Of a stretch of DNA of 61,180 bases, positions 6,278 to 47,612 are shown in pieces; position 1 is the stretch's first letter, and the number at the start of each line of letters is the position of its first letter. The notes under the pieces are model-generated. The model worked only from the letters and a program-made list of their open reading frames with translations, was not told the origin of the DNA and ran no database searches. Where the stretch lies: NCBI GenBank assembly GCA_036505555.1, contig DASXTH010000072.1, positions 1 to 61,180 on the forward strand, read 5' to 3'. The translations under genes were made by a program, and so were the position numbers. The stretch comes from Candidatus Limnocylindrales bacterium. GTDB lineage: Bacteria; Chloroflexota; Limnocylindria; Limnocylindrales; CSP1-4.

Positions 6278-6537
6278 GAGCCTCCCTTCAGGCAATGCCT
6301 GAACTCCTCCACGCACGGATCGAGTGGACAGCATGCCCAAGCGGCTCCCGACCGCGGGTCTGGGCGGTGTCCGAAACCCCGTGATGACACCGATGCCGGC
6401 CCTCCCGGGGCCGGCGCGTCCGTTGGTGGACGATACGGCGGTCGTTTGCGCGTGGTCAATCGAGGGTGGTCGGGTGGGTTCATCTGACAGATGTTTGGCG
6501 GTGCGGCAACGCAACGGGGCCGCGGCGCCCCGGACAT

Positions 6538-6569
6538 GACGAAGCCCGGTCTCGCGACCGGGCTTCGTC
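6538..6569 (-). terminator. Perfect 14-bp stem hairpin downstream of the S1 protease gene
   Basis: GACGAAGCCCGGTC (6538-6551) pairs with GACCGGGCTTCGTC (6556-6569) across a 4-nt loop. It lies 20 nt past the stop at 6590 on the minus strand. There is no U-tract, as is common in high-GC genomes. Confidence 0.6.
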
Positions 6570-6589
6570 GTCCACTCGGATGGGGTCGG

Positions 6590-7531: not shown

Positions 7532-7705
7532 ATGCAGATCTCCCGTCGTGACGACGGGACCGCGCCGCATCTCGCGATCCGAGCCGTTTCCTCCACGAGC
7601 GCCGCATCTCGCCCGGTCTCAACCGCGTCAGGGTAACGCGGCCGGCGGCCGACGTGCCAGACGCGACCGCGACCCGCCGGTGCGCGCCGGCACCGTCCGG
7701 GCGAG

Positions 7706-28809: not shown

Positions 28810-29109
28810 CTACGGCCTGGGCATGACGACGTCCACGATCCGACCCGGACGCTCGAGCTCCTCGGGACGGAGGACATCGTTGCCATCGCACAGCCGCCAG
28901 AACGCGAGTGGATCCCCGGCGAAGCGGGCGGCCAGGAGGTCGAGGCGGTCGGCGTCGGTCATGACGTGCTCGGTGACGACGGTCAGCGAGTCCGGCCGGG
29001 GAAGAAATCGGCGCCGCTTGAAGCGCACGGTGCGAAGGCTCCCGTCGGGCTGCGCGACCTCCATCGCGGCGTCGTCGATGCTGGCGTAGCGGCTCTGGGT
29101 CTCGAACAT
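28810..29109 (-). CDS. LysM-like / gpX-like small baseplate protein
   Basis: 99 aa, with the ATG 2 nt after the upstream stop. HVMTDADRLDLLAARFAGDPLAFWRLCDGND resembles the tail protein X / LysM motif (h.v..GDrLD.lA.r.yGd....W.ia..N). Confidence 0.6.
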   Translation of the reverse strand: MFETQSRYASIDDAAMEVAQPDGSLRTVRFKRRRFLPRPDSLTVVTEHVMTDADRLDLLAARFAGDPLAFWRLCDGNDVLRPEELERPGRIVDVVMPRP

Positions 29110-29111
29110 CG

Positions 29112-29792
29112 CTACCCGCCGATGCTCATGCTCGCCGAGAACGAGGCCGAGCCGGAGAGGGCGCCACCGACCGCGGTCGCACCCGAGATCGTGGCCATGA
29201 CCTCCTTGATGACCTGGTGAGCGAGGAACAGCCCGCCCCCGATGCTCAGGAGTCCGAGGTCGTCGTAGGTCAGGACACGGAGGGACAGGTTGACCTTCGC
29301 CCGGATCGGGTTCAGCGCCGGATCGAAGGCCTCTTCGGTGATCGATAGCTGGGTCAGACGGACGGGGACCACGCGCTTCAGGCCCCAGACGAACAGGGTC
29401 AACGGCGCTTCAGGCGGGATGACCTCGATGATCCCGAGCGCGGCGAGCACCTCGTTGGCGATCACGAGCGCCGACTTCGGGTAGAGGAGCATCTCGAGCG
29501 ACGCGAGCGACGGAGCGACCCCGAACTGTCCCGTGATCGCGTCGCCGCGCTCCATCTGATCGGCGGCGTCGACCTCGACTTCGAGCGCGATCGTCTCCTC
29601 CGGCGGGCCTTTCAGCCGGAGCGCCTCCGACTGCGACCCGTCGCCTCCGCCGCCGCCGGCCGCCCGCGCCTGGACGGTCCGGGTCAGGGTGTCGGGGTTG
29701 TACTGGAAGATGACGACGCTGGCGAGCGGGTTCGCCGGATCAAGCCCGATGATCGCGCCCTTCAACAGCCGCGGCGAACCGGGAAACGTCAT
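29112..29792 (-). CDS. CIS tube-initiator-like protein (Afp7 N-terminal-domain type)
   Basis: 226 aa. VVIFQYNPDTLTR, APLTLFVWG and LNPIRAKVNLSLRVL match the pattern I recall for the contractile-injection-system tube/initiator family. Confidence 0.6.
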   Translation of the reverse strand: MTFPGSPRLLKGAIIGLDPANPLASVVIFQYNPDTLTRTVQARAAGGGGGDGSQSEALRLKGPPEETIALEVEVDAADQMERGDAITGQFGVAPSLASLEMLLYPKSALVIANEVLAALGIIEVIPPEAPLTLFVWGLKRVVPVRLTQLSITEEAFDPALNPIRAKVNLSLRVLTYDDLGLLSIGGGLFLAHQVIKEVMATISGATAVGGALSGSASFSASMSIGG

Positions 29793-29866
29793 GGGCGGAC
29801 CGTATGGGCGAGGCCGTCACCGACCCGTCACGCGCCCGTCACGGCGACGACGCGTCGTTGTCCTGC

Positions 29867-30193
29867 TCAGCCGGCCTGCGCGTCGATCGTCACTTCGAAC
29901 CGGTCGCCGACGGCGTCGCGCTCCCACGATCGGCGGTTGACGAACGTCAGCGCCGTCTCTCCGGGTCCGATCACCGCGATCCGGAAGCGCCGCGAGCCCG
30001 CTGCGCCGAGGCGCTCATGGTCCGGCCCAACGAACGTGCGGTCCCGCAGAGCCACGATCGAGTCGTCGAACGCCTCAAGGGCCCATCGGTAGCCCGAGGT
30101 CGGCGTCTCGTCGAGTGCGACGACGAGCTCGTCCCCGACGGTCACCGTCTGCAATGTGCCTGCCTCGGCCAGGCCGATCTCGATCTCCGCCAT
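29867..30193 (-). CDS. Chagasin-family (I42) cysteine-peptidase inhibitor, no signal peptide
   Basis: 108 aa. The three chagasin loop motifs are present: ETPTSGYRW (NPTTGYxW), LGAAGSRRFRI (GxGG) and NRRSWERD (RPW). Confidence 0.75.
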   Translation of the reverse strand: MAEIEIGLAEAGTLQTVTVGDELVVALDETPTSGYRWALEAFDDSIVALRDRTFVGPDHERLGAAGSRRFRIAVIGPGETALTFVNRRSWERDAVGDRFEVTIDAQAG

Positions 30194-30221
30194 CCCGTCC
30201 GGCCCTCGCTGCCTGTCGGGC

Positions 30222-31049
30222 TCAGTGTGGCAGCTCCGCGGCGCAGCATGCCTCGCCGGCGTTCGCCAGGAGGCTGGCGAAGTCGGAGCGCTTCATCCGG
30301 AAGCGGCCGTTCTGGCCCCAGCTGCCACCCCACGAGTTCTGGAAGACGTAGGTGTCGTCGGCGTCGACCTTCTCGAGCATGAGGTAGCAGTGGCCGCCGG
30401 CGACGCTGCCGGTCGGCTTCACGAGCCCGTTCGCGTCCGGATCGAACATGTCGTCCGTCCAGGCTGTCCCGACGACGACCGGCCCATGGTTGTTGATCCA
30501 GTCGTCGATCTCGTTCGTGTTCTGCGCGAACGCGAAGGCGGCGAGGCGGCCACGGTTACGGAGCGCGAGGGCGCCGGACCGGACATACGAACCGTTCTCC
30601 GCCAAGGGCTCCCCGTCGATCACCTTGCACTCGTAGTAGAGCGCGTGACCATCCGCGTTCTGGTAGTTGCCCTCGACCGGCATGGCGTCGACCCAGCCGG
30701 CCCAGCCGAAGCCAACGCAGTGGCCGGTCTGGCCCTGATCGAGCTGGATCTTCAACTCCCAGCCCGGCGTGGTGTCACCGGGCGGCATCGGCTGCGGCTT
30801 CCGCTTCTGCCGCTTCAGCCAGCGCCAGAAGACGAGGTAGTTGGGCCAGGTCGAGAAGTAGGGCGTCTGGTCGAGGACCTGCTCCACGGTCATCTGCAGC
30901 GTCGCCTCGCCCGGCTCGGCGAGCTCCATCAGCTTCGCGATCGACCAGTCGCGCGGGTCCGGCTTGTAGATCCGGCCGAGCAGGTGGCGGCCGAGCGTCA
31001 GCGCGGCGCTCCGCGGTGGCGGATCGATGGCGAGCTCACGGGGTTCCAT
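30222..31049 (-). CDS. Papain-like cysteine protease (C1 family), no signal peptide
   Basis: ATG with GAGGA upstream. Catalytic layout: DQGQTGHCVGFGW (Gln and Cys111), AGGHCYLMLE (His220), FQNSWGGSWGQNGRFRM (Asn238-Ser-Trp). Confidence 0.8.
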   Translation of the reverse strand: MEPRELAIDPPPRSAALTLGRHLLGRIYKPDPRDWSIAKLMELAEPGEATLQMTVEQVLDQTPYFSTWPNYLVFWRWLKRQKRKPQPMPPGDTTPGWELKIQLDQGQTGHCVGFGWAGWVDAMPVEGNYQNADGHALYYECKVIDGEPLAENGSYVRSGALALRNRGRLAAFAFAQNTNEIDDWINNHGPVVVGTAWTDDMFDPDANGLVKPTGSVAGGHCYLMLEKVDADDTYVFQNSWGGSWGQNGRFRMKRSDFASLLANAGEACCAAELPH

Positions 31050-31154
31050 CGCAGGGTCCTCAGCGGCTGGCGCGACGGACCGTCGCGGCCCAGGTCAGGT
31101 GAGGCTAGAGGCCGGTCGTCACGTCCGCGTCACGACGGCGTCACCCGCAAGCGT

Positions 31155-32972
31155 TCAGAATCGCAGGCTGCCGACGCCAAGGACGGTGACTCGGCTGGCG
31201 TCCGTGCCGATGAGCGCCCTCCCTTCGACACCGAGCTCGAGCCGCTCCCATCGATACCCGGCTCCGACGGATCCAGAGAGTCCTCCCACGACCTCTGCCC
31301 CGGTGCCTGGCCCTCGGTCGGGCGCCGGTAGGGCGATGCCTACGAAGCCACCGGCTCGGACGTCCCCATAGAACCCGCGCAATGGTTGCTGGATGCGAAC
31401 GCCGATCTCACCCAGCGCAGCCGCCACGTGGCCGGCGGATGGTCCCCCTCCCGGCAGATACAGGAGGTGAGCTCCGAGGCCAGGGTTGATGACGACCATT
31501 TGGTCCGAGCGGAGCGCGATTCGAAGACCCAGGCCAATGGCCGCCCGCGTCGTGGCGGGCTCGAACGACGCTCCGCCGCGAAGTTCGAGACCGAGCCGAC
31601 TTCCGGACCTGGACTCGCCCGACTGCGCGGCGGTTGGGTCCACGACGGACGGCCCCGGCGGGAATGTCGCGCCCCGGACGGCCGCACAATCGAGTGTCCG
31701 GTTTTCTACCTGACCCTGTGCGGCATCGATCCCGAGCCCGAGCGCGGCATTGACGCGGGTGGCGAGGCCCGAGTGCGGTCCGCGGAGCCCGAGCCAGACC
31801 CATCGCTTGAACACCTGCCGGTGAATTGGGTGTGTCGCGATCACCGCACGGTGGTAGGCGGCGATCCGCGTAACACTTCGCTCCCTCACGGGATCGCTGA
31901 CCGTGGATCGCTCGAAATAGTCGTTCAAGGGGCCGAACTGGGACATGTGGTCGATGTAACACGCGTTGGTTCGGACCAGAACCGTGTACAGGCGATGGAA
32001 CTCGCGGACGAAGCTGCTGGTCCATGCGTCGACCTCAGACTCATCGCCTCGGAGACTGCTTCCGGTCTCGTACTGACGAACGTGGTCGACCTCATGATTG
32101 ACGGTGACCCGAGTCGCAAAGAAGTTGTCGGGTTCGAGTGCCGGCGGTCCCAGAACGACGTAGTTCTGGCTCCCATGGCGGAGGGTGTAGCCGGCATCGC
32201 GCGAAAGGGAACGGTGGTCCGATCCGGCGGCTCTCTTGGTGCCGAGTCCGTCGTCGTAGTTGATGACGTGCGAACTCACATCGAAGGCAACGAGGTGGGC
32301 GGCATCCGGATAGCGGTCGCCCTCGCTGGCGGTGGTGCGATCGACCACCCGCCATCCAATGGCCTCGTGCACGAGGGCTGCTCGATCCGCGGAGGTTGTT
32401 GCCGCCCCGACCCGAGCGGCCCAGTCGGCAGGGGCGCCGGTTGCTGCTGGTCCGACCCGTGAGTCGCGCTGGATCACCGGTGCGCGGTCACCGCTGTCGT
32501 CCGTCTGACCTTCTCGGGCCAGCCGCTCGGCCTCGTCGTCGGGAGGCCCGATGACATGCGACCATTGCCGTGCGCGCGCTTGTTGAGTGACGTGCGCAAG
32601 CTCGTGGCGGAGCAGGTCGCGTCCAGACCCGGCGTCGGCGTCGAACTGCGAGCGACCGAACACCACGTGATTCCCGACCGTGAAAGCCCGAGCCCCAAGT
32701 GATTCCGCGGCATTCGCCGCGGTCGAGTCAATATGAATTCGAACGCTTGCGAACTCGTGCCCGGCGGGCACGGGAGCCATCCCGCGGATCGAGCCAGGCA
32801 GGGGCATGCCAGGCTGGTCGAGCACTGACCTCACGGCCGGGTGAGTGCGCCGCGCCGCTGTCAGGCGATCGCCTGGGCTGAATCCGCCCGACTCCGCCGC
32901 GCGGGCAAGACTGCTCATCGGCGCTGACCCGTCGCCGCGATTCGCGCCGCCGACTGCGCGATAGCTCCACAT
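31155..32972 (-). CDS. DUF4157-type zincin protein with a second HExxH region and a C-terminal amphipathic beta-barrel-like domain
   Basis: FASVRIHIDSTAANAAESLGARAFTVGNHVVFG...LLRHELAHVTQQ matches the DUF4157 signature. A second motif NHEVDHVRQ lies at aa 292-300. The last ~150 aa form alternating hydrophobic strands ending in LRF. The start is ambiguous: ATG 32972 or ATG 32918. Confidence 0.75.
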   Translation of the reverse strand: MWSYRAVGGANRGDGSAPMSSLARAAESGGFSPGDRLTAARRTHPAVRSVLDQPGMPLPGSIRGMAPVPAGHEFASVRIHIDSTAANAAESLGARAFTVGNHVVFGRSQFDADAGSGRDLLRHELAHVTQQARARQWSHVIGPPDDEAERLAREGQTDDSGDRAPVIQRDSRVGPAATGAPADWAARVGAATTSADRAALVHEAIGWRVVDRTTASEGDRYPDAAHLVAFDVSSHVINYDDGLGTKRAAGSDHRSLSRDAGYTLRHGSQNYVVLGPPALEPDNFFATRVTVNHEVDHVRQYETGSSLRGDESEVDAWTSSFVREFHRLYTVLVRTNACYIDHMSQFGPLNDYFERSTVSDPVRERSVTRIAAYHRAVIATHPIHRQVFKRWVWLGLRGPHSGLATRVNAALGLGIDAAQGQVENRTLDCAAVRGATFPPGPSVVDPTAAQSGESRSGSRLGLELRGGASFEPATTRAAIGLGLRIALRSDQMVVINPGLGAHLLYLPGGGPSAGHVAAALGEIGVRIQQPLRGFYGDVRAGGFVGIALPAPDRGPGTGAEVVGGLSGSVGAGYRWERLELGVEGRALIGTDASRVTVLGVGSLRF

Positions 32973-32993: not shown

Positions 32994-35078
32994 TCAGGCA
33001 TTGGCGTAGATGGTCGTGCACTGAGCATCCGTCAATGGCACGACCGCGCGGCCCGAGAAGGGGCTCATCAGGTTAGCCGCCGGGTGCGCGCCCGAGTTCA
33101 GCAAGGTGTGGCCGATCTCGTGGGCGAGGTCCTCGCGCGTGGTGACGTTGCGAAGGACGACCATCCCACGCAATGGCGCTGCTGGTCCAGTCGCGCAGAA
33201 GGCCGGAACCGAATAACCCCCCGCACCCGATCCGCTGAACGTCGCGGGATAGAAGGCCCGAATTGGGGCGGTCAGCCCGAACGTGGCCGTCGCTCCGTTG
33301 AAGAGCGCACGCTCCTCGGCCGTCGCCGCACCACAGCTGGGCGACGTAGCCAAGTCCGTGTTGCCACCGAGCCATGTCGTCGTCTGGGCGTTTGTCGCCG
33401 TGGCGTTCACACCGTGCCGAATTCCGACGTCGCACTGTTCGAGAATCGAGCTCGCGACCGCAACGTCGGCCGATGGCGTATGGGTGGATCCATCCAGTTT
33501 CACGGTATCAACCGTGACCGTCTTCCGGGGTTGGGCCCTGGCCGCGGCGGGGGGCACCAGGGCGACGGTGGCGGCGACAAGGCCGAGCATCAGATTCGCC
33601 CGCTGGAGGCTCGCAGTCTGGGCGGCCGATGGCGTGGCGGGCGCTGAACCCAGCGCCGTCCGCACAACGGCCAGGATGGCCGCGCCATCGCGCTGGACCG
33701 CGAGAAGCGTGATGTCGCGGTTCACCAAATTGTCCATGAACGCGAGCGCAACATCGAAGCCGTCCGGTCCGAGCTGCTGGAAGGCTGTCCGGACGAAGGG
33801 CAACTCGGCGACCGTATTGGTCAAGGCGCGAGCGGCCAGGTGGATCCCCCGAGCAAGCGCTGTCGGTTCGCGAACGAGGAACGCAGCTACGTCGGCTGCG
33901 AGGGTAGGAGGAGCCGCGCCGGTCGCGCTGGCACGCGTATCGAGGAGGGGGGCGAAGGCCGGATCGAATGCCGCGGCAAGGGCCTGGATTTGCTGGGGAT
34001 TCAGGGTCGCGATGCCGGTCAACTCCTCGATCTCGGCTGGTAGTGGGAAGCGCAATCCGGCCCGCCAGCGCGACATGTCTGGCAATCCCAGGTAGAACTG
34101 GTTGTAGACCATGAGAGCTTGGGCAAGCTCCAGCTCCGAGATGACCGCGAGCGGCTGCGGCACGCCGCCCGTCGGCGTGAACGGAGTGGCCGTCGTCCAG
34201 AGGGGAAGGAGTACTTGTGCGAGCATCCGAGGCGTCAGGTTCGCTCCGATGATCACGTCGAGGCGGCTCGAGCCGGTCGAGATCAGGCCGCCCTGGACGG
34301 TCACGGGGCCGACGCGAGTGTCGGTGACGTTGGTCGGAACGAACTGGATCCCCGTACGCGGCGTAGTGCCGAGCAGGCGGACGTAGCCTACGGCGGCCGG
34401 ATCGGCCCGCGCGACGAGCGTGCGCCCCGAAGCCCACGAATCGAACCGGGTATCGATCGGACCGGCTCGGTTCGATCGGGTGGCCTCGTTGCTGACTTCC
34501 TTGGCCTCGCGTTCGGCCGGACTGCTGGGATCGTCCAGCTCGGGCTCCGCCTCGGACGCGATGCGTCCACCTTGTTGGACGACATGCGTGAGCTCGTGGG
34601 CGATGAGCCGTCGGCCTCGTTCGGACGTTGGCTGGAACGCGCCCGCTCCGAAGACCACATCCCGGCCGCTCGTGTAGGCGATGGCGTGGATCGACGCAGC
34701 CGAGTGGGCCGCGGACGGCCCTTCGTGGATCCGAACCGCCGCGAAATCGTGTCCGAGCGCGCGCTCCATCGACGCTCGGATCCGCGGTTCGAGCGGGCGA
34801 CCATTTGAGTTGATCCCCTCCCGGACCGCTTGACCGAGGTGCGCGGGGGGCAGAGTCCCGGAGACGGGGCTGCGCTGAACACGGTCGGCGTTGTCGTGAT
34901 CGCAGGTTCCCGATGGGCAACGAATGGCGCCACAACCCTGCACGAGTGGACGAACCGCTCGAGCGGCCGGCCGGATCGTGATCGGTGGAACGGATCCAAG
35001 AGCACGCGACTCGGCGCGCGCGGGCCGGGAGTAGATCATGGGACCGCCGGCCTTGACGTCGGCAAACGTCTGGGTCAT
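32994..35078 (-). CDS. DUF4157-type zincin protein with a large uncharacterised middle region and a C-terminal second zincin motif
   Basis: DFAAVRIHEGPSAAHSAASIHAIAYTSGRDVVFG...RLIAHELTHVVQQ matches the DUF4157 signature. The C-terminus carries LAHEIGHTLLNSGAH...NLM. Start chosen at ATG 35078; ATG 35039 is also possible. Confidence 0.7.
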   Translation of the reverse strand: MTQTFADVKAGGPMIYSRPARAESRALGSVPPITIRPAARAVRPLVQGCGAIRCPSGTCDHDNADRVQRSPVSGTLPPAHLGQAVREGINSNGRPLEPRIRASMERALGHDFAAVRIHEGPSAAHSAASIHAIAYTSGRDVVFGAGAFQPTSERGRRLIAHELTHVVQQGGRIASEAEPELDDPSSPAEREAKEVSNEATRSNRAGPIDTRFDSWASGRTLVARADPAAVGYVRLLGTTPRTGIQFVPTNVTDTRVGPVTVQGGLISTGSSRLDVIIGANLTPRMLAQVLLPLWTTATPFTPTGGVPQPLAVISELELAQALMVYNQFYLGLPDMSRWRAGLRFPLPAEIEELTGIATLNPQQIQALAAAFDPAFAPLLDTRASATGAAPPTLAADVAAFLVREPTALARGIHLAARALTNTVAELPFVRTAFQQLGPDGFDVALAFMDNLVNRDITLLAVQRDGAAILAVVRTALGSAPATPSAAQTASLQRANLMLGLVAATVALVPPAAARAQPRKTVTVDTVKLDGSTHTPSADVAVASSILEQCDVGIRHGVNATATNAQTTTWLGGNTDLATSPSCGAATAEERALFNGATATFGLTAPIRAFYPATFSGSGAGGYSVPAFCATGPAAPLRGMVVLRNVTTREDLAHEIGHTLLNSGAHPAANLMSPFSGRAVVPLTDAQCTTIYANA

Positions 35079-35178
35079 CGGTCGCCCGTCGGCTTCCGAG
35101 CCGCCCAGGGGACGGCGTTCAGCTGGTACGCATCCCGTCGCGTGAACGGCTGGCTGGCGGCGCGGCACCGCCGCCGTT

Positions 35179-35198
35179 CGCATCTCTCCGCAGATGCG
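35179..35198. other. 7-bp palindromic hairpin in the 300-nt non-coding gap inside the cargo island
   Basis: CGCATCT (35179-35185) pairs with AGATGCG (35192-35198) across a 6-nt loop. It lies about 100 nt upstream of the 35078 start. Function is unknown. Confidence 0.3.
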
Positions 35199-35378: not shown

Positions 35379-37844
35379 CTAGAGGTCCGGAAGGACATCG
35401 GTCAGGATGGCCTCGACCTGGCGGACGATGGCCTGTCGTTCCAGGTCCACTCGCTCACGATCGAGCCGCGTCTGCTGCGCGAGAATCGCAGCGGCAGGTG
35501 ACTGGTTCGGATTCGGTAGGCGGCGCGCGAGGAAGGGAACGTGGAGATGGCCGAAGTGAATCTTGGATCCCGCTTGGGTAGCCAGCAGTCCGACCCGATA
35601 GAAGATCTCGTTCGAGAGGTAGCTTCCTCCTGAACCCGCCACGGACGTCGAGCCCGGCGTGGGCCCCTTGAGCGAAGGGGTCACCTTCGACGACCCCGGA
35701 ACTCGCTCCATGATCTCCAGTTCGCCCCGCGTTGGAGCGGGCTTCTGCGGCCTCAACGTGCGGCGAGCCGACGGGGGGAGGGTCCCGCGGATGAACTCAG
35801 GTCCGGCTGGAAGGCCCGGGGCCGCTCCGGCCGTCGCGGGGGTCACGCCCGGGTTGTCTGGCGTCCCAGCGCCGCGGGTCCGGCCGGCCCACTCCTCGAC
35901 CTCGTAGGCAGGTCCGGCGTTCATGCTGATCGTCATGATCATGTCGGCGTGGCCCGGGCCTGACAGATACGCCGCGAACAGTTGCTCCACGATCCGCTCG
36001 TCGAAGGCCCGGAAGCTCACCGGAAAGACGACGCTTTCGACCGACCCCTTGATCGATCCGCTCGTCAGCTGACGACCATCCAGCGCGAGCGCCGCCGCAG
36101 CGGACGGATTGGTGGCCTCGGACAACCCGTAGTCACGCCGCTCGAAGCCGAACGGATCGAAGCCGCTGATGACAATCCGTTTCGTGCTGTTCGGGCCCGC
36201 GAATCGAGCCGCCAACATGCCGCGGGACGCTCGCTCGAGGAGCTGGTTCAGGTCGTCGCGCCGGGCTGCCGTCAGTCCGAATCGCGGCTGCCATTGGTCG
36301 AGGGTCCGGCGGAGCTGGACGCGAGCCCAGTAGAGAGGGCGGTCGTCAGTGCTGCCCGCGCGCGCGGCGGCGGTCGCCTGCGTCCACAGGCCGCGTCCGA
36401 CCGTCTCGACGGCCGTTCGCGCCGCTGCGAGGGACCGCGCCCGGTCGAGCGCGTTCGCGAGCCGCGGGATCGTCGATTCCAGGCCGGAGCGCGCGAGATA
36501 GGTCGAGCTCATGGATGGGACGTTGGCGGCGGCGGGACGCGACGGCTGCGATCGCGCTGCTTCCCGGCCGGGCGGCACGCCAGCGAAGCCGCATCGCGGG
36601 ATCGGCAGGATCGTCCCGCTTCGACCGGCGGCCAGCTCCTGTGGGGTAAGCCTCCGGCCATACGCCTGGCGGAACGCCTCGAGTTCCTCGGCACGCGCTC
36701 GAACGCGCGCCGGATCGGGGCGCTCACCGTCGAGAGGCGCATACGTCGCCGTGACGTAGTCGCTCTGCCACTCGCGGGTGAGATCCGGATCGTTGCAGTC
36801 GGGTCGAGCGAACCCGCGGACCTCGACGTGGGTCTGTCCTCGGGGCCTGGCGCCACAGAAGATTCGCCGTGCCGTCTCCCTCGGCAGGCGGACGCAGCCA
36901 TGGGACAGCGGAGCGCCGGTCACGGTGGTGTGTTGGTGAAGGGCCATCCCTCGGAACCCCAGGAATGTGTTCCAGAACTCCCACGTGTTGTGCGTACGCT
37001 CCGTATCAGTGATCGTGTAGGTGGAGCCGATCGCCGTCGCATTGCTTCCATCGCGCCGCGATTCGGCGACGGAGGCGGTCGTGCCCGGCGGCCCGCCGCC
37101 TACGACGCAGCAGTGCCCCTTGCCCGTCGAAGCGACCGACGACGAGACCGTCCTGTCGCTCCAGTGGAGCGTCACGGATTGCGGTCTTTCCTGATCGACG
37201 ACGATCTTCCTCAGCCACGGATCGCGGTCGGCTGCCGCGCAATCCGGTGAGTTCGCGGCCTCCCAAGTTCGCCGGAGGCGTCCGGCCGGTTCGGCCGACA
37301 CCGCGGTCAGAGACCCTTGGGCGACCCGCTCCGCTTCGAGCTCGTCATTGTCCTCAGGGCGGCTCATCGACAGTGCTCCGCCGGCTGGGGCGTGGCCGGC
37401 CTGCTGGACGACGTGGGCCAACTCATGCGCAAGAAGGCGTTGGCCATCGGGCGTGCCAGGCTGGAATCGTCCCCAGCTGAAGACGACGTGCGAACCAACG
37501 GTGTAGGCCCGGGCGGCCACGTCCCTCGCCGATGCCGCAGCCCCGGCGTCCGTATGGATCCGGACGTGATCGAACCGATGACCGATGCGCGCCTCCATTT
37601 GAGACCGGATCCCGCGATCGAGCCTGTTTCCCGGCGTAGCCAGCGTCGCACCGACGGAGGGCGGGATCGTCGCCGGACCCAGTCCGGTTCGAAACCGGTC
37701 GAGACGCCCATCCGGCTGGCCGCAGCCGCCGGCCGGACACGGATGATCCCCGCAGCGCTGGAGACGACGACCGGAGATGAGCCGCACGGGGCTCGTGCGA
37801 ATGCCCGCCGTGGAGATGCGCGGGGCGCATGCGGCCGAGGTCAT
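35379..37844 (-). CDS. Three-module protein: DUF4157 zincin + YkuD-type L,D-transpeptidase-like domain + pyroglutamyl-peptidase (C15)-like domain
   Basis: ATG at residue 26 of ORF 35379..37919, in an ATGA overlap with the upstream gene. HRFDHVRIHTDAGAAASARDVAARAYTVGSHVVF...LLAHELAHVVQQ matches the DUF4157 signature. ALHQHTTVTGAPLSHGCVRLP matches the YkuD signature. KRIVISGFDPFG...NPS...YEVEEWA...GGSYLSNEIFY...GHLHVP fits a C15-like layout. Confidence 0.75.
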   Translation of the reverse strand: MTSAACAPRISTAGIRTSPVRLISGRRLQRCGDHPCPAGGCGQPDGRLDRFRTGLGPATIPPSVGATLATPGNRLDRGIRSQMEARIGHRFDHVRIHTDAGAAASARDVAARAYTVGSHVVFSWGRFQPGTPDGQRLLAHELAHVVQQAGHAPAGGALSMSRPEDNDELEAERVAQGSLTAVSAEPAGRLRRTWEAANSPDCAAADRDPWLRKIVVDQERPQSVTLHWSDRTVSSSVASTGKGHCCVVGGGPPGTTASVAESRRDGSNATAIGSTYTITDTERTHNTWEFWNTFLGFRGMALHQHTTVTGAPLSHGCVRLPRETARRIFCGARPRGQTHVEVRGFARPDCNDPDLTREWQSDYVTATYAPLDGERPDPARVRARAEELEAFRQAYGRRLTPQELAAGRSGTILPIPRCGFAGVPPGREAARSQPSRPAAANVPSMSSTYLARSGLESTIPRLANALDRARSLAAARTAVETVGRGLWTQATAAARAGSTDDRPLYWARVQLRRTLDQWQPRFGLTAARRDDLNQLLERASRGMLAARFAGPNSTKRIVISGFDPFGFERRDYGLSEATNPSAAAALALDGRQLTSGSIKGSVESVVFPVSFRAFDERIVEQLFAAYLSGPGHADMIMTISMNAGPAYEVEEWAGRTRGAGTPDNPGVTPATAGAAPGLPAGPEFIRGTLPPSARRTLRPQKPAPTRGELEIMERVPGSSKVTPSLKGPTPGSTSVAGSGGSYLSNEIFYRVGLLATQAGSKIHFGHLHVPFLARRLPNPNQSPAAAILAQQTRLDRERVDLERQAIVRQVEAILTDVLPDL

Positions 37845-38650
37845 GACGAAGCCGCGCATTCGATGAAGTGCGCCCACGCGTCGACGTTCTTCGACTGATC
37901 CCCGCGGAGGTTGTCGCACGGGTCGTGACAGTCCACGCGCGGGGTGCAGTAGTTCTCATCGCCGGTGACGGAGGAGTCGATGCCAGCGGCATGGCCGGCC
38001 TCGTGGATGAGCGTTCGCCGCATCTGGCCCGCCGAGGTTGCGAAGATCCGCGGGCACAGCACCATCGTCGAGAGATCGTCCGTGACGCGCGCCGCGACCT
38101 CCGGATCACGGCATGGCGCATCGCCACACCCGGCAACTTCGATCGGAACGGAGTCGAGTTTCTGTCGGATGGAGGCGACGCGCGAAGATGCACGCCCGGC
38201 ATCGATGTTCGTGTGAAAGACCCGGGTCGCGACGGTGTCCAGATAGCGATCACCGCGGCCCAGGGCCTGGTACGCCCGCGACGTCGTACTCCGAGCTGCC
38301 CATCGGACAGCGTTCATCCGCTGCGACTCCTGCGGCGTGAACGGCCTGCGGGTCGGAGACGAATCGACGTCCTGGCCCACGCACAGCAGCTCGCGGAGCG
38401 CCTGTCGGGTCGGATCCGTCGGAGGTGGCTCCTCATCGGGGCCGCCCTCCGCCAGCCTCGCGCGGAGGGGCGACGCGATCGAGAAGTGCCGCAGGACGTG
38501 GTTCGCCCCGCGGCACGGTCGATGGATGCCCTCCGCCGTCTCAGCCGGGGCCGGAACCGCCAGCAAGGCCAGTCGTCCGCCCCGCGCCGGCCCTAGCGCC
38601 CGTGGCAGACGTGGTGCCCTGGTCATCGGCGCCATGCAGGCCGTCATCAC
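37841..38650 (-). CDS. Aspzincin (M35-like) metallopeptidase-domain protein
   Basis: RRTLIHEAGHAAGIDSSVTGDENYC aligns with HExxH followed by the aspzincin GTxDxxYG motif at its T, D and Y positions. The start is GTG 38650 (GTGA overlap) or ATG 38647. Confidence 0.6.
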   Translation of the reverse strand: MMTACMAPMTRAPRLPRALGPARGGRLALLAVPAPAETAEGIHRPCRGANHVLRHFSIASPLRARLAEGGPDEEPPPTDPTRQALRELLCVGQDVDSSPTRRPFTPQESQRMNAVRWAARSTTSRAYQALGRGDRYLDTVATRVFHTNIDAGRASSRVASIRQKLDSVPIEVAGCGDAPCRDPEVAARVTDDLSTMVLCPRIFATSAGQMRRTLIHEAGHAAGIDSSVTGDENYCTPRVDCHDPCDNLRGDQSKNVDAWAHFIECAASS

Positions 38651-38967
38651 AGGAGGCCCTCGGCGGCGCGCCGCACCGCAGCGTCGACGGCGCCGGCGAT
38701 CCCGGTGCCGACCATCGAGGAATGTTGGGCGCCAGAACCGAGGTCCAGGCGCGTGCGGACAGCGTCCAGCGCCACACCGGCTGGCGGGGCGGCGTTGCCA
38801 AACGTCGCGAGCCTCGCTCGCAGCTCCGTCTCCACGGCCCGACCGACGACGTGGCCGTCGACCGTACCCAGGCCGTTGAGGACCAGCCGGTCGATCTCGA
38901 CCGATACGACCGTGGGGTGACGCCCGGGGACACCACGGCGCCTATCGCGACGGCCGATCAGGCCCAC
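38647..38967 (-). CDS. Small conserved-looking hypothetical protein (106 aa) linking the ATPase gene to the cargo genes
   Basis: GTG start with GGAGG 6 nt upstream, overlapping the ATPase 3' end by 10 nt. Its stop overlaps the next start. The frame is GC3-rich and carries no known motif. Confidence 0.5.
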   Translation of the reverse strand: MGLIGRRDRRRGVPGRHPTVVSVEIDRLVLNGLGTVDGHVVGRAVETELRARLATFGNAAPPAGVALDAVRTRLDLGSGAQHSSMVGTGIAGAVDAAVRRAAEGLL

Positions 38968-40949
38968 CCCGCCACCTCCGTCTCGGTCAGCGTCCGCTCC
39001 AGCTTCGCGTACTCCGTTCGGGTCGCGCGGAGCAGATGGGCCATGCCGATCGGCCGGCCGGCCTCGGCGGCCAGGAACGCGGCGTTCACCGCGATGTTCC
39101 GGATGTTGCCGCCGGCGACGTTGAGCCGCGCGAGTCGTGCCGCTTCCACGCCGTCCGTGGGCGCAGCCGGCGGGAACGCTCGCCGCCAGATCTCCGCCCG
39201 CGCCGCCTCGTCCGGGAACGGGAAGTGAACCGTGAAGCGGATCCGCCGGAGGAACGCCGGGTCGATGCTCTCCTTCAGGTTCGTCGTGAGGATCGCGAGG
39301 CCACGGTAGGCCTCCATGCGCTGCAGCAGGTAGCCGACTTCAATGTTCGCGTAGCGGTCGTGGCTGTCCTTGACCTCGCTGCGCCTGCCGAAGAGCGCGT
39401 CGGCCTCGTCGAAGAGCAGGATCGCCCCGCCGTCCTCCGCGGCGTCGAAGACCCGGCGCAGGTTCTTCTCGGTCTCGCCGATGTACTTGCTGACCACCTG
39501 ACTCAGGTCGATCCGGTACAGGTCGAGGCGGAGCTCGGTCGCGAGGACCTCGGCCGCGAGCGTCTTGCCGGTCCCGCTCGCGCCGACGAACAGCGCGGCG
39601 ATCCCGAGACCCCTGGCGCTCGTCGCGCCAAACCCCCAGCGGTCGTACACGAGCGTCCGGTGACGGACCTGGAGGGCCAGCTCGCGGAGGGTCTCGAGAT
39701 GGCCGACGGGCAGGACCAAATCCGACCAGCCCGCTCGAGCGTCCACACGCTGGGCCAGATCGTCCATGCGCGGCCGCGCCTGGCCACGGCACGCGTCCCA
39801 CAGCGCGCGGCCCAGGGCCGTCGGATCGGCGCCGCCCACCTCCCCCGCGGCCGCGACCTCGGCCAAGGCTTCGACGCTCGCCTCCCGGATCCCGCGGATC
39901 CCGAGGTCGAACTGCGAGGCGAGGCGATCGCCCTGGCCGTCGAGCCGATCGGGGCCGACCAGCGACTGCCACACCTCGAGCTGCTCGCCGCTGGTCGGCT
40001 TTGCCACGTCAAGCGCGAGCATCGGGCGTGCGCGCGTCGGTCGGCGATCGCGGATCAGGAGGATCAGGGCCGACGACAGTCCCTCGACGACTTGGGAGAT
40101 GGCGGCATCGCGAGCCGAGTCGTGACCCTCGACGCCGTCGCAGTCCAGGATGAGGGCGGTTCCAGCGAGCGCAGCCTCCCGTTCGCAGAGGCGGACGAGG
40201 GCGTCCAGCTCGCGGGGTTCGACGGGCAGGGACTCGGCCCGGACGATGGCCAGGCGCATCCCGAGCAGGATCGCGGCGACCTCCGCGACGAGGCGCTTGC
40301 TCGAGCCGTCCGGTCCGCACAGCTCGATGACCGGCGGCGGTTCTCCGGGCGGCCGATCCGTCCAGGCATGGACGATGCGGTGGGCGAGCTGCTCGTGGGA
40401 GGGCACGACGTCGAGCTCGGACGCACGTTGGGACAGCGGCTCGAGGTACCCGGCCAGGCGGTCGTCGACCGCGTCGATCCCGACGAGGTGATGGAGCACG
40501 CGCTCGTCGATCCGCAGCGCGCTTGTCGCGAGCGGCCCGGCCGCGGGCTCGACGAGCCGCCAGCGGCGCAGCGGCGCATTCGGCGCGAGCGCGCTCCAGT
40601 GGGCATCGGGCAGCGCCGCCAGGGCGAGGCTGAAGGTCGCGTGGGCCCGGCCCGGATCGCCCTGGGCCCGAGCGCACAACTCGCCAACGGACGCGTCGAG
40701 CTCGACACCGGCGCACAGAACCAGCACGTCGCGCTCGAAGGCCGACAGACCGAAGGCCGCGACGACCTGGTCGAGCGCGGCGGGGCGATCGGAGAGCGCC
40801 GGGTCCGCCGCCACATCGGTTCGCGGGACGTCCGGCCCTGCCGAACCCCCGGACGCGTGGCGCTCAACCGCCGACCGGACCCCGCCGAGGGCCGCCTCGA
40901 GGCGCGCCTTGTTGGCCGCCGTCCACGCGTCGGCCTCGACGCCGATCAT
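38958..40949 (-). CDS. AAA+ ATPase of the eCIS Afp15 type
   Basis: 663 aa with a long N-terminal region and a single C-terminal AAA module. Walker A is GASGTGKTLAAEVLA and Walker B is ILLFDEADALFG. The SRH-like region is ILTTNLKESIDPAFLRRIRF. ATGA overlap with the DUF4255 gene. Confidence 0.9.
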   Translation of the reverse strand: MIGVEADAWTAANKARLEAALGGVRSAVERHASGGSAGPDVPRTDVAADPALSDRPAALDQVVAAFGLSAFERDVLVLCAGVELDASVGELCARAQGDPGRAHATFSLALAALPDAHWSALAPNAPLRRWRLVEPAAGPLATSALRIDERVLHHLVGIDAVDDRLAGYLEPLSQRASELDVVPSHEQLAHRIVHAWTDRPPGEPPPVIELCGPDGSSKRLVAEVAAILLGMRLAIVRAESLPVEPRELDALVRLCEREAALAGTALILDCDGVEGHDSARDAAISQVVEGLSSALILLIRDRRPTRARPMLALDVAKPTSGEQLEVWQSLVGPDRLDGQGDRLASQFDLGIRGIREASVEALAEVAAAGEVGGADPTALGRALWDACRGQARPRMDDLAQRVDARAGWSDLVLPVGHLETLRELALQVRHRTLVYDRWGFGATSARGLGIAALFVGASGTGKTLAAEVLATELRLDLYRIDLSQVVSKYIGETEKNLRRVFDAAEDGGAILLFDEADALFGRRSEVKDSHDRYANIEVGYLLQRMEAYRGLAILTTNLKESIDPAFLRRIRFTVHFPFPDEAARAEIWRRAFPPAAPTDGVEAARLARLNVAGGNIRNIAVNAAFLAAEAGRPIGMAHLLRATRTEYAKLERTLTETEVAGWA

Positions 40950-44593: not shown

Positions 44594-46513
44594 CTACGTC
44601 TCGATCTTTCCGGCGATCTGCTGGATCTGGATGATCACGAACTCGGCCGGCTTCAGCGGCGCGAAGCCCACGAGGATGTTCACGACCCCCAGGTTGCGGT
44701 CGGTCTGTGTGGTCGTGTCGCCGTCGCACTTGACGAAGTACGCCTCCTTCGGGGTCGTGCCGGCGAACGCGCCCTGCCGGAAGAGGCTGTGCATGAAGCT
44801 GCCGACGTTCAGCCGGAGCCGCGCCCAGAGCGGCTCGTCGTTCGGCTCGAAGACCGCCCACTTCGTCCCGCGGAACAGGCTCTCCTCGATGAAGAGGGCA
44901 GTTCGCCGGATCGGGATGTACTTCCACTCGGATGCGAGCCGGTCGGCACCATCCAGCGTTCGGGCTCCCCAGCAGACCGTCCCGTACACCGGGAACGTCC
45001 GGAGGTTGTTGATCCCGAGCGGATTGAGCGTCCCGTTCTGATCGTCGGTGAGCGTCGTCTCGAGGGAGCGGACGCCGCGAAGGACGGCTTCGGTGCCGGC
45101 GGGCGCCTTCCAGACTCCGCGCTCGGCGTCCGTGCGGGCGTAGAGCCCGGCGACCGTCCCGCTCGATGGCACGAGCCGGTCGCGGAACCCGTTGACCGGG
45201 TCGGGGATGTTCGGCCGCGGGAAGTAGAGGGCGGCGTTCTTGTGGCGGAAGCCGGCGTTCCCGTCGAGCCAGTCCTTGATCTCCTGGACCGTGTCCCGGG
45301 TTGCGGCCTGCTGCGGAACGTCGAGGATGAAGAAGGCTCGACGCGACTCGCAGTACGTCTCTGCCAGGGGGATGAACGCAGCCGCCTCGTTGTCGACGAG
45401 GTTCATCGTGTCCGGCACGCACAGGATGTTGAAGATGTCGACGGTGTCGAGCGCGTAGATCCCGGTTCGCCCGACCGCGTCGCCGAGGAGCGCCGCGCCA
45501 TTTGGCGCGCCACCGTCATTGCCCTGCCGCTGACCGGCCGGAGGACCCGGCGGGACCGCCTGGGCCGCGGAAGCCGTCCCGCCGAGCGAATACGCCTGAA
45601 CGTTGACGACGTCGAGCTTGATGTCGGGGGCGAGGGTCCCACCGAACGTGATGAGGTCGCTGCCGTTGGCGCCACCGGTGACTCTCAGGTTCCGCGTGGT
45701 CGCGGTGCTCGGCTCGGCCGTCACGCGGACGTTGCGGAGGGACGAATCCACGCTCTGGATCAAGGCCTGGAGGAGCGAGGCCAGCCTCGATGCGGTCTCG
45801 TGGCGGGTCGCCCCGAGGGTGAACGTGCCGCCGACGTTCGTCCCGTTGACCACGACCTGCAGCGTCTTGGTGGCCGCCAGCCCGTTTGCGGCCGCGTCGG
45901 TGAGCGCGGTTGACGTCATCGTCCCGGTCTCAGCGACCCGGGCAGTGGGCGATGTCGCCAGGTTCGTCAGCCTGATCAGCGACGAGGAGGAATTGACGAC
46001 GGCCGGCGCGAAGTTCGGGGCCGAGGAGACGAGCCCGAGATTGCGGTAGCTCTCCGACGCGACGGTTCGGCCGCTCGCGTCGACCTCGCGGGCCGTGAGG
46101 TTGAACTGACCGGCCATGGAGGTCTCGTGATCGACATCGATCTGGACACGGTTGCCCCAGACGCCTTCGCTCGCCGCCTCGGCCAGGAGGGCGGCATTGC
46201 CCGCGGTCACGGCGTCGAGCATCGCGATCGCGGCCGCCGCCGGGGTCCCCGAGGCGACCCGCACGACCCAGGCCTCCCGACCGCCGTTCAGGAAGAACTG
46301 GCGGATCGCGTAGCCGACCTCGCTCGACGTGACGAGCGGGCCGAAATTCCGATCGAGGTCGGCGAGGCTGAAGACCTGGATCGGCGTGTTGAGCTTGCCC
46401 TTGGTGAACGAGCCGAGGAACGCCGTGACGGACGTCGAGACCCCGATGATCGTCCGGACTCCGCTCGGCAGCTCCTCGATGTAGACGCCGGGATACGTCG
46501 GTGCAATGGGCAT
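44594..46513 (-). CDS. Contractile tail sheath protein
   Basis: ATG at residue 24 of ORF 44594..46582, with AGGAGG upstream. The N-terminus MPIAPTYPGVYIEELPSG is the canonical sheath start. The C-terminal region NNLRTFPVYGTVCWGARTL is typical. Confidence 0.9.
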   Translation of the reverse strand: MPIAPTYPGVYIEELPSGVRTIIGVSTSVTAFLGSFTKGKLNTPIQVFSLADLDRNFGPLVTSSEVGYAIRQFFLNGGREAWVVRVASGTPAAAAIAMLDAVTAGNAALLAEAASEGVWGNRVQIDVDHETSMAGQFNLTAREVDASGRTVASESYRNLGLVSSAPNFAPAVVNSSSSLIRLTNLATSPTARVAETGTMTSTALTDAAANGLAATKTLQVVVNGTNVGGTFTLGATRHETASRLASLLQALIQSVDSSLRNVRVTAEPSTATTRNLRVTGGANGSDLITFGGTLAPDIKLDVVNVQAYSLGGTASAAQAVPPGPPAGQRQGNDGGAPNGAALLGDAVGRTGIYALDTVDIFNILCVPDTMNLVDNEAAAFIPLAETYCESRRAFFILDVPQQAATRDTVQEIKDWLDGNAGFRHKNAALYFPRPNIPDPVNGFRDRLVPSSGTVAGLYARTDAERGVWKAPAGTEAVLRGVRSLETTLTDDQNGTLNPLGINNLRTFPVYGTVCWGARTLDGADRLASEWKYIPIRRTALFIEESLFRGTKWAVFEPNDEPLWARLRLNVGSFMHSLFRQGAFAGTTPKEAYFVKCDGDTTTQTDRNLGVVNILVGFAPLKPAEFVIIQIQQIAGKIET

Positions 46514-46627
46514 GCCGTCCTCCTGACGGCGCCCGCTCTGGCACCGTCTGCTTCGGCGGAAGGGTGGTCGACGATCCGTCACTGGACCATCACCGGCATG
46601 TCACCGCGATGCGCGTGCGGCCGCCCG

Positions 46628-46656: not shown

Positions 46657-47346
46657 TCAGGCCGACGACGCAACCCCCACGAGCGGGGTCACCAGGGCGG
46701 TCACGGCCGGCGATGGACCCAGCCGGAGCTCGTCGCGCATCAACCGGACGTAGGCCTCGTACTGGCGAATCGCCTCGGCTCGGTTGCCCTCGCGGAGATG
46801 GGCGTTGATCAGGGCGACGTGGCCGCTCTCGTGGAGCGGCTCTTCGGTGATCGCCGCCAAGCCCGCTTCGATCGCACGCCCAAATTCGCCGGCGAGCGTC
46901 AGCATGACGCAGGCTCGTTCGAGGGCGTGCAGCCGGAGCTGGCGGAGACGCTCCCGTTCGATGAGGACCCAGTCGTCGTACCAGTCGGGGAGGAGGTCCC
47001 CGGCGACCGTGAGCTCGTCGATCCGCTCCGTGGCCACATCCCCGTCGCCCGCCATCAGCTGGTGGGACCAGACCGTGAACTCGATGACGTCGACCGCAAC
47101 ATCCTCGCCGAGCGTCAGGTAGTCCCCACTCGTCTCGACGACCCGGACGCCGGCCTGGCGCAGGCGCCAGAGGGCCGAGCGGAGATTGCCCATCGCCCGA
47201 TCCTGCGTTGCATCGAGCCACAGCATCTCGGCGACGTATGGCCGGAGGGATGGTCGATTTCGAAGCGCGACGAATGCGGCCACCCGTTGTGCGCTGAGCG
47301 GGATCCTGATCGGGACCCGCTCACAGGACAGGGAGAAGCCCTGCAT
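46657..47346 (-). CDS. SARP-family transcriptional regulator (OmpR-type winged helix + BTAD)
   Basis: ATG at residue 50 of ORF 46657..47493. The wHTH region is RVAAFVALRNRPSLRPYVAEMLWLD...NLRSALWRLRQAG. The BTAD region is GDLLPDWYDDWVLIERERLRQLRLHALE...GNRAEAIRQYEAYVRLMRDELRLGP. Confidence 0.8.
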   Translation of the reverse strand: MQGFSLSCERVPIRIPLSAQRVAAFVALRNRPSLRPYVAEMLWLDATQDRAMGNLRSALWRLRQAGVRVVETSGDYLTLGEDVAVDVIEFTVWSHQLMAGDGDVATERIDELTVAGDLLPDWYDDWVLIERERLRQLRLHALERACVMLTLAGEFGRAIEAGLAAITEEPLHESGHVALINAHLREGNRAEAIRQYEAYVRLMRDELRLGPSPAVTALVTPLVGVASSA

Positions 47347-47612
47347 GAGACACAGCCGGACGCGGGCGTCGGGGCGCGTCGCGCCCACGACTCGGGCGCC
47401 GGCCGGATGGCCGGTGTCCCCATTGCGGCGCTGGACTTCCGGTCGCGCGCTGCCCGGGAGTCGAACGGCATTCGCCGCCGTGTCGACGCCCATTGGTCAG
47501 CCCGTCGACGGCAGCCGTCGGTCGTGAAGCGTCCCGTCGACCATCGTGCCCCCAGACCTGGTGGATCGCCCGATCATCGCACAGCGCCGTCTCGCCAGCG
47601 TCGCGCGAGTCG

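Follow-up and report, generated by a model that had tools for sequence, protein, structure and literature searches.

A linked gene pair for a predicted papain-family protease and a chagasin-type inhibitor in the variable region of a Chloroflexota contractile injection system locus

Introduction

Trypanosoma cruzi chagasin is an I42-family inhibitor that regulates an endogenous C1 cysteine protease, cruzipain, and structures of chagasin complexes have been solved with cathepsin L, papain and falcipain (PDB 2NQD, 3E1Z, 2OUL). Here we describe a chagasin-type gene that lies directly behind the gene for a predicted papain-like protease in the locus of an extracellular contractile injection system (eCIS), on a 61,180-nucleotide stretch of DNA from Candidatus Limnocylindrales bacterium (Chloroflexota; GenBank assembly GCA_036505555.1, contig DASXTH010000072.1, positions 1 to 61,180 of the forward strand), referred to below as the window. 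The window inhibitor shares with T. cruzi chagasin its Pfam family, its immunoglobulin (Ig)-like fold and its three-loop signature and is leaderless, as the protozoan chagasins are; because it is encoded together with a C1 protease of the same organism, regulating an endogenous enzyme would be its expected job. Unlike in the chagasin-cruzipain system, the inhibitor gene is coupled to that of the protease in a bacterial operon, inside an eCIS locus and behind a putative SARP-type operator, and its L4 and L6 loops read GAAGS and RSW where the canonical strings are GxGG and RPW.

The chagasin-like inhibitors of Pseudomonas, P. aeruginosa ICP (PDB 2WGN) and the lipoproteins Cip1/Cpi1, belong to the same family as the window inhibitor, yet they are equipped with Sec or lipoprotein signals, act on the proteases of a host at the cell surface and are encoded in genomes that lack a C1 protease (bioRxiv 10.64898/2026.06.02.729523), whereas the window protein is leaderless and adjoins its presumed cognate enzyme. 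On the protease side, xylellain of Xylella fastidiosa (3OIS) is likewise a short, single-domain bacterial C1A enzyme with an N-terminal extension in place of an I29 propeptide, although its identity to the window protease is ~14%. The N-terminal region of xylellain reportedly covers the active site; that of the window protease is longer (~100 residues, four helices), and xylellain, unlike the window enzyme, has no known pairing with a chagasin gene.

Among eCIS-associated toxins (EATs), the RES-like EAT5 with its Xre-like antitoxin exemplifies a toxin with an adjacent immunity gene (Geller et al. 2021, PMC8213781), adjacency to DUF4157 genes and a position at the 3' end are regarded as toxin hallmarks (PMC11297309, PMC8213781), and proteases make up ~2% of the predicted EATs (PMC11297309). 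As in EAT/immunity pairs, the window has an enzyme gene followed by that of a small candidate neutraliser, in an eCIS operon and near DUF4157 genes. Unlike EATs, the window protease has no DUF4157 domain and only a candidate N-terminal packaging signal, its neutraliser has a classical active-site inhibitor fold, and most members of its family are found outside eCIS loci.

The regulatory features of the locus also have described counterparts. The classical SARP site consists of three heptamers with an 11-bp period (PMC10972967), and SARP promoters such as the ActII-ORF4, DnrI and PimR sites are counterparts of the window repeats, in which direct GTGACG(G) heptamers stand three in a row, 4 nt apart, ahead of a TANNNT-like element. 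The known SARP regulons are Streptomyces antibiotic clusters, whereas the predicted targets in the window are an eCIS sheath, a baseplate module and the protease cassette of a Chloroflexota genome. The BTAD domain, for its part, is a recognised eCIS-associated 'shell' regulator domain (PMC8213781).

Results

A leaderless C1A protease with a predicted xylellain-type fold

The protease gene (30222..31049, minus strand) encodes a leaderless, xylellain-type C1A cysteine protease of 275 residues. Residue inspection reveals the complete catalytic layout, with Gln105 in the motif QGQTGHC, Cys111 (codon TGC, nt 30717-30719), His220 and Asn238-Ser-Trp, and with Gln105 six residues N-terminal of Cys111 (Q-x5-C), the spacing of Q19 and C25 in papain. 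A sequence-only reading that preceded this work had described just such a layout in a 275-residue protein, and its residues and nucleotide positions proved exact. The Pfam Peptidase_C1 profile (PF00112) covers residues 176-256 only (E 1.1e-7; 32.6 bits, gathering cut-off 20.7), while PHROG 16701 (E 3.6e-30, residues 101-270) extends over the Cys region as well. Furthermore, a family profile of 61 sequences finds xylellain 3OIS as its top profile match (E 5.7e-9), the Cys stretch being aligned with the xylellain motif DQGRIGSC. The His/Asn region aligns with the cathepsin B motif GGH...NSW, and Q105, C111, H220, N238, S239 and W240 are invariant across the 61 homologues.

The AlphaFold2 model built on the same 61-homologue alignment has a predicted local distance difference test score (pLDDT) of 90.8 and a predicted template modelling score of 0.85. 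In a Foldseek search it gave 262 PDB matches at E<=1e-3, and papain-family structures account for all 50 of the 50 matches listed; the top match, over the whole length, is again xylellain 3OIS (E 4e-10, template modelling (TM) score 0.60), and rhodesain superposes with a root-mean-square deviation of 3.2 over 214 columns. As modelled, the protein adopts the two-lobed papain fold and falls within family C1A. A C1B identity (bleomycin-hydrolase/PepC-type), considered owing to the cytoplasmic location and the conserved C-terminus, was rejected, as there is no C1B Pfam match and the structural matches are all C1A. The C-terminal sequence itself, GEACCAAELPH (window 30222-30260), is near-invariant across the family, with C268 and E272 invariant.

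The protease shows no hydrophobic h-region of a signal peptide in its first 75 residues (maximum Kyte-Doolittle 15-mer 0.5), and a Pfam scan finds no I29 propeptide. The latter had been anticipated by the sequence-only reading, which nevertheless overlooked a conserved and confidently folded N-terminal region of ~100 residues that carries the motif LLGR-x4-PD-x-RDW and is predicted to form four helices before a low-confidence linker. With a Kyte-Doolittle sum of -25.9, the first 35 residues of the protein share a hydrophilic character with the neighbouring DUF4157 proteins, and there is no aromatic residue among the first 8. The possibility that the N-terminal 100 residues form a packaging module common to other effectors was rejected: among 1.84 billion cluster representatives they have 23 matches, mostly known C1-family members or short fragments, an assessment that covers the matches other than the three longer multi-stretch ones, P0139, P0142 and P0145.

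A leaderless chagasin-type inhibitor encoded 28 nt downstream

The inhibitor gene (29867..30193, minus strand) follows that of the protease after a gap of 28 nt (30194-30221) and encodes a leaderless, 108-residue member of the chagasin family (MEROPS I42). The protein matches Pfam Inhibitor_I42 (PF09394) over the entire profile (positions 1-91 of 91; E 1.8e-19, 70.2 bits, cut-off 27.2), and an identical sequence is named 'protease inhibitor I42 family protein' at NCBI. Its PDB sequence matches are P. aeruginosa ICP and T. cruzi chagasin (E 2e-8 to 1.5e-7), the best being ICP 2wgn_B (E 2.2e-8). The AlphaFold2 model (pLDDT 90.3, eight strands) reaches TM scores of 0.81-0.87 against EhICP2 (3M86) and chagasin (2H7W, 2NNR, 2NQD), and the predicted structure is an Ig-like, eight-strand beta-sandwich. 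All three inhibitory loops are recognisable, namely L2 (canonically NPTTG-aromatic-x-W) as TPTSGYRW, L4 (GxGG) as GAAGS and L6 (RPW) as RRSW, the last two being slight variants of the canonical strings.

The earlier description of a 108-residue protein with three chagasin loops, given as PTSGYRW, GAAGS and RRSWE, 28 nt behind the protease gene thus agrees both with the strings present and with the full-profile Pfam match. The inhibitor, too, shows no hydrophobic h-region of a signal peptide: the maximum Kyte-Doolittle 15-mer in its first 75 residues is 1.1 and corresponds to a beta-strand of the domain, so that by this measure both proteins are without a signal peptide, as had been claimed. 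PADLOC and NCBIfam scans of the two proteins returned no match and support neither a catalogued defence system nor a curated equivalog.

Protease and inhibitor genes are linked across the family

The protease has 424 detectable relatives, which at one genome per species yielded 37 loci, 34 of them evaluable for chagasin; individual loci are referred to below by number. With a chagasin hidden Markov model, an adjacent chagasin gene was found in 24 of these 34 species-level loci. The linkage is kept in L029, where the gene order is inverted, and in L134 the chagasin gene adjoins, and follows, a second C1 gene. Over 33 partner sequences, conservation of the inhibitor loops ETP[TS]SG[YF]RW, GGxGxR and RxW reaches 80% or more, against divergence in the remainder of the protein. 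Adjacency together with inhibitory loops that are conserved despite this divergence is the signature of a cognate protease-inhibitor pair, and on these comparative grounds the two genes are an evolutionarily linked pair that forms a conserved cassette. By analogy with the solved complexes of the inhibitor family, we consider it highly probable that this inhibitor acts on this protease.

The two partners differ in their apparent rates of change. Among the eCIS relatives, identities amount to 84-93% for the protease and to 43-68% for the inhibitor; for L001 and L022 against the window, the values are 43-45% for the inhibitor, 84% for the protease and 70-89% for the structural genes, and as judged from these identities the inhibitor evolves much faster than the protease. 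The called inhibitor genes encode 106-121 residues across the family, lengths from which we conclude that its chagasins are leaderless throughout. The contrast drawn in the sequence-only reading between a leaderless copy and exported bacterial chagasins is right with respect to Pseudomonas, but the leaderless, protease-linked form is the rule in this family and not an adaptation specific to eCIS.

A putative SARP-type operator stands ahead of the protease, tube and sheath genes

Upstream of the protease gene lies a triple direct repeat, GTGACG-N5-GTGACG-N5-GTGACG, with an 11-nt period and 0 mismatches (31117..31144, minus strand), which is a putative SARP operator/promoter of the cassette; it ends 68 nt upstream of the protease ATG and is followed 9-10 nt downstream by TAGCCT. 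The same triple GTGACGG repeat (29815..29842, minus strand) precedes the second tube gene (ATG 29792) at the start of the transcription unit of the baseplate module, directly after the cassette, and a degenerate copy with 2 mismatches (46577..46604, minus strand) occupies the intergenic region between the regulator and sheath genes. These are the only three sites in the 61-kb window, where shuffles give an expectation of 0.01 matches. The candidate binder is a BTAD/SARP-type transcriptional activator encoded at the head of the eCIS locus (46657..47493, minus strand; Pfam BTAD 9.8e-18), which aligns weakly with the AfsR SARP 8hvr_I (E 2.7e-4, residues 68-267). Three heptamer repeats with a SARP gene nearby make this a SARP (BTAD) regulon by its sequence features, with putative binding of the activator.

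The repeat recurs at corresponding places in related loci. It precedes the protease genes of L001, L022 and L041-43, and thus of all copies that share the mid-slot position of the window cassette, as well as those of L023 and L029; the latter two loci are without an eCIS structural gene within 10 kb but carry a BTAD gene 48-50% identical to that of the window. Homologues of the second tube gene (tube226) are preceded by it in L001, L022, L041-43, L049, L074, L080, L085, L086, L088 and L100, and sheath genes in L001, L041-43 and L132; in L132 it also lies upstream of a small gene preceding the protease homologue. Of the copies inspected by eye, most have a TANNNT-like hexamer 9-10 nt past the third repeat, whereas L023 and the sheath site show no clear one. 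Homologues of the BTAD protein (44-50% identical) are encoded near the protease genes of L023, L027, L029, L035, L128 and L132. In the first five of these, no more than a few kb separate the BTAD gene from that of the protease, and none of the five loci has eCIS structural genes within 10 kb.

From the recurrence of this operator, the BTAD protein probably co-regulates the cassette and the particle genes through the repeat, and the cassette is most likely a transcription unit of its own inside the eCIS regulon. Since the operator is common to the cassette and to the sheath and baseplate modules, the cassette should be made together with the particle.

Two further observations concern start sites and alternative control. 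The listed GTG start of the sheath open reading frame (44594-46582; first in-frame start, position 46582) coincides with the GTG of the third operator repeat, and the real start therefore probably lies further downstream. In the Micromonospora loci that carry the protease only (L013, L018, L025, L026, L030, L031, L032 and L038), a different conserved palindrome, GCCGGCAGTCGnCAAACGGACTGTGCCGG, is found ~90-60 nt before the protease gene, and in L038 genes for a histidine kinase and a GerE response regulator lie directly upstream, which suggests that these protease-only loci are under a different control circuit.

The cassette occupies the payload slot of an eCIS locus

The window (70% GC) contains a single eCIS locus (~14677-47493, ~33 kb, minus strand), recognised by sheath, tube and baseplate domains in Pfam. 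Its gene order is BTAD regulator, sheath, gp19 tube, two unknown genes, Pvc16, AAA ATPase, two small genes, three DUF4157 (eCIS_core) genes, protease, chagasin, CIS_tube, two unknown genes, VgrG-like, gp25, Baseplate_J, a 1678-residue open reading frame and DUF6519; the injection-system context asserted by the sequence-only reading is plain from the marker genes of this series, from the sheath to DUF6519, which all lie on the minus strand. The cassette is situated between an Afp15-like AAA+ ATPase gene (38958..40949, minus strand) and the second tube-family gene (CIS_tube, tube226; 29112..29792, minus strand), the upstream and downstream boundaries of a variable slot. In 27 related loci this AAA-to-tube interval spans 0.2-9.5 kb and contains 0-6 DUF4157 genes, and because both its size and its DUF4157 count vary we take it to be the variable payload region. 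The three DUF4157 genes of the window (31155-32972, 32994-35183 and 35379-37919, minus strand), presumed payload, share the slot with the cassette, which lies directly downstream of the first-named and hence within the two genes of a DUF4157 gene that define an EAT position. The same DUF4157-proximal placement of the pair in an eCIS locus recurs in L001, L022, L041-43 and L129.

A scan of positions 29000-32000 found no terminator between the cassette and the operon, the one terminator-like match lying inside a gene and at background level, and no promoter-like site for sigma-70; a repeat search for insertion scars flanking the cassette returned only the short matches typical of GC-rich DNA. 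The GC content at third codon positions (GC3) is 0.93 in the protease gene and 0.87 in the chagasin gene, close to the structural genes tube226 and AAA (0.90-0.91) and unlike the DUF4157 genes (0.74-0.78); gp25 has 0.81. The lower GC3 of the three DUF4157 genes relative to both cassette and structural genes suggests that, within the slot, it is these genes that were exchanged more recently.

Some neighbouring features are recorded here in their own right. The 846-residue DUF4157 protein (35379-37919, minus strand) also has a YkuD domain (L,D-transpeptidase fold) and a Peptidase_C15-like segment, DUF4157 is combined with PG_binding_1 in L129 and with YkuD in L132, and, judging from these domains, the cell wall looks like the target of the payloads in this eCIS lineage. 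Outside the eCIS locus, a row of genes at 609-7570 (minus strand) encodes a pair of large, PA-domain-containing S8 subtilases of 848 and 1143 residues and a trypsin-like protein. Finally, the eCIS genes of L022, which is labelled as a Verrucomicrobiia bacterium metagenome-assembled genome (MAG), are 72-89% identical to those of the window and of the Chloroflexia MAG L001, which suggests either a recent transfer or an error of binning or taxonomy.

Relatives in other eCIS positions, chromosomes and phages

Among the 37 species-level loci, eCIS genes lie within 10 kb of the protease gene only in L001 and L022, to which three further metagenomic places are added. The cassette is in the mid-slot position, between AAA and tube genes, in the window, L001, L022 and L041-43; in L129/130 a 76%-identical pair stands at the 3' end of the eCIS operon, after DUF6519 and before a DUF4157/PG_binding gene; and in L132 (8001-9326) a 51%-identical, 441-residue homologue is encoded at the 5' end, with no accompanying chagasin, in the interval from the SARP gene to the sheath gene. 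The L132 protein has an extra C-terminal domain of ~165 residues, and its gene is preceded by two tiny open reading frames and the operator. On a rough and informal estimate, these three separate eCIS positions exceed what random placement would be expected to give, given that eCIS loci occupy <1% of a genome and that three independent insertions are counted among ~50 contexts.

Outside eCIS loci, L044 holds an 82%-identical pair beside an IS110 transposase and a PIN/Phd toxin-antitoxin pair, L128 a 78%-identical pair among ordinary genes, and the Plantactinospora copies are syntenic, in housekeeping-like chromosomal surroundings beside metabolic genes. A larger conserved module around the pair in Micromonosporaceae was considered and rejected, the synteny being at genus level only and with ordinary genes. 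Judged by this distribution, the cassette is a mobile accessory unit and mainly a non-eCIS feature of Actinomycetota.

Xylellain-type C1A genes have been reported in tailed phages (PMC10380794), and 34 phage records encode proteins 28-44% identical to the window protease. In Arthrobacter phage Mufasa8 (L045) the homologue, gp26, comes directly after the holin, and in Gordonia phage Aleemily (L046) gp29 lies between the lysin A genes and the holin, while in Streptomyces phage Wakanda (L047) and the metagenomic phage contig L133 the homologue is found beside terminase/portal genes; none of these four phage loci contains a chagasin. The phage homologues suggest that the family is at home in phage-derived elements and may serve in lysis or release.

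Discussion

We propose, with a probability of roughly 0.45, that the cassette is an eCIS payload with its antidote, in which the protease is the injected cargo and the inhibitor is left behind. The cassette would have been placed in the eCIS payload slot of this Limnocylindrales lineage, between the AAA ATPase and the second tube gene, where its own SARP-type promoter would drive it in step with the sheath and baseplate modules. The inhibitor, produced from the same transcript as the protease, would plug the active-site cleft with its L2 (TPTSGYRW), L4 (GAAGS) and L6 (RRSW) loops, as in the solved chagasin-protease complexes, and would keep the enzyme silent in the cytoplasm of the producer; the protease would then part from its inhibitor on loading or release and, in the target, degrade proteins or possibly peptides of the cell wall. 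The parts of this scheme are not equally secure. Judging by the solved complexes, we strongly expect the inhibitor to occupy the cleft of its co-transcribed protease in the producer cytoplasm, whereas for the loading of the protease as cargo we would offer slightly less than even odds. More tentative again is the broader notion that the chagasin fold may have become a dedicated cytoplasmic antidote of a xylellain-type payload or release-factor protease, within a portable, SARP-controlled unit that moves among eCIS loci, phages and chromosomal sites.

A number of observations weigh against an injected role. The N-terminal packaging signal of eCIS cargo is described as hydrophilic and disordered (PMC11297309), and the first 35 residues of the protease have the former property, yet residues 11-30 are predicted to be ordered (pLDDT ~97), and the N-terminal region to which they belong does not differ in type between eCIS and non-eCIS copies and occurs only within this protease family. 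The family as a whole shows no preferential association with eCIS: ~30 genomes of Micromonosporaceae and other Actinomycetota have a member with no eCIS gene within 10 kb, and in Micromonospora, Plantactinospora and other Actinomycetota the copies are surrounded by ordinary genes, with synteny inside each genus. Conversely, when 80 related eCIS loci were gathered with the downstream tube gene as anchor (54-81% identical), neither protease nor chagasin was found in any of the 80, of which 42 extend at least 1.3 kb beyond the tube gene on its upstream side. Catalytically intact proteases without a chagasin within 10 kb occur in 9-10 genomes, which argues against an obligately self-toxic enzyme; the homologue in L132 is in an atypical position for cargo; and those of phages lie in lysis cassettes or beside terminase genes. 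The sequence-only reading had put forward an effector/immunity pair, to be checked by its co-occurrence in other eCIS loci. What stands of that proposal is a real, linked pair in a payload slot and under an eCIS operator; the pair is, however, not specific to eCIS, protease-only genomes exist, and the protease N-terminus, predicted to be folded and alike inside and outside eCIS loci, is not a module that other cargo shares. Co-occurrence itself is sparse, with the pair in 0/80 related loci and a minority of the family's copies in eCIS loci. That reading had also named, as evidence that would speak against it, a pair common outside injection systems and equipped with export signals: the pair is indeed common there, but without such signals.

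Several of these observations would be accommodated by an inhibitor-guarded intracellular protease that is expressed together with the eCIS but not injected, and that serves lysis and particle release, the processing of DUF4157 proteins or of the particle, or programmed cell death. The closest viral relatives (PHROG 16701, E 3.6e-30) are in actinophage lysis cassettes and others beside terminase/portal genes, the L132 homologue is intercalated between SARP and sheath genes, the folded protease N-terminus is unlike a disordered eCIS-type signal, and in the published model eCIS particles are released by cell lysis (PMC8213781). The cassette moreover has a SARP operator of its own, and a SARP gene with the operator is also present in L023 and L029 without structural genes. 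We nonetheless regard such an accessory role, although the main rival, as less likely, as the pair in the window and in its closest relatives has the placement usual for toxins, amid DUF4157 genes or at the 3' end, a wall-acting lysin would need no cytoplasmic inhibitor, and no holin or endolysin partner was seen beside the cassette in the window. In addition, the 80 related eCIS loci lack the pair, which is therefore dispensable for assembly or release in this lineage.

It is more improbable still that the cassette is an autonomous housekeeping or stress module of soil Actinomycetota and Chloroflexota and a mere passenger in the eCIS locus. The great majority of homologues do lie outside eCIS loci, with syntenic Plantactinospora copies near metabolic genes and the pairs of L044, by IS110 and PIN/Phd, and of L128, among ordinary genes; neither protein has a PADLOC or NCBIfam match, and the GC3 of the cassette (0.93 and 0.87) matches that of the structural genes and not that of the DUF4157 genes. 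On a rough estimate, however, three independent eCIS positions are unlikely to have arisen by chance, and SARP genes of the eCIS type recur beside non-eCIS copies. Above all, every mid-slot copy has the eCIS operator immediately before its protease gene, and because this operator precedes the cassette a pure passenger is the least likely explanation. The payload-and-antidote reading remains the leading one.

Taken singly, xylellain-type C1A proteases, chagasin/I42 inhibitors, eCIS toxin-immunity pairs, payload regions marked by DUF4157 and BTAD regulators of eCIS are already known. Their combination in a chagasin-protease cassette within an eCIS payload slot is apparently undescribed, the literature check having been directed at this setting; in keeping with a remark of the sequence-only reading, no paper was found that combines chagasin with contractile injection, and neither Peptidase_C1 nor Inhibitor_I42 was found in the available parts of the supplements of two eCIS toxin surveys. 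A triple-heptamer operator common to such a cassette and to the particle modules likewise appears to be undescribed.

If the broader notion of a dedicated chagasin-fold antidote is true, the cassette would provide the first classical active-site protease inhibitor to act as eCIS immunity, and with its repeats an eCIS regulon would for the first time have a defined set of SARP operators. Most eCIS toxins are without recognisable immunity genes, and how producers tolerate their toxins is an unsolved problem (PMC8213781); a payload-slot protease paired with an off-the-shelf active-site inhibitor would be a simple example of self-protection, and such a compact protease/inhibitor pair would extend engineered injection systems. 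The triple-repeat operator, in turn, would offer a handle on the joint switching of eCIS and accessory genes in soil Chloroflexota and Actinomycetota, groups that have received little study. Since the cassette is mainly a non-eCIS feature of Actinomycetota, regulated cytoplasmic proteolysis, possibly related to lysis, may be the more general question that this family poses.

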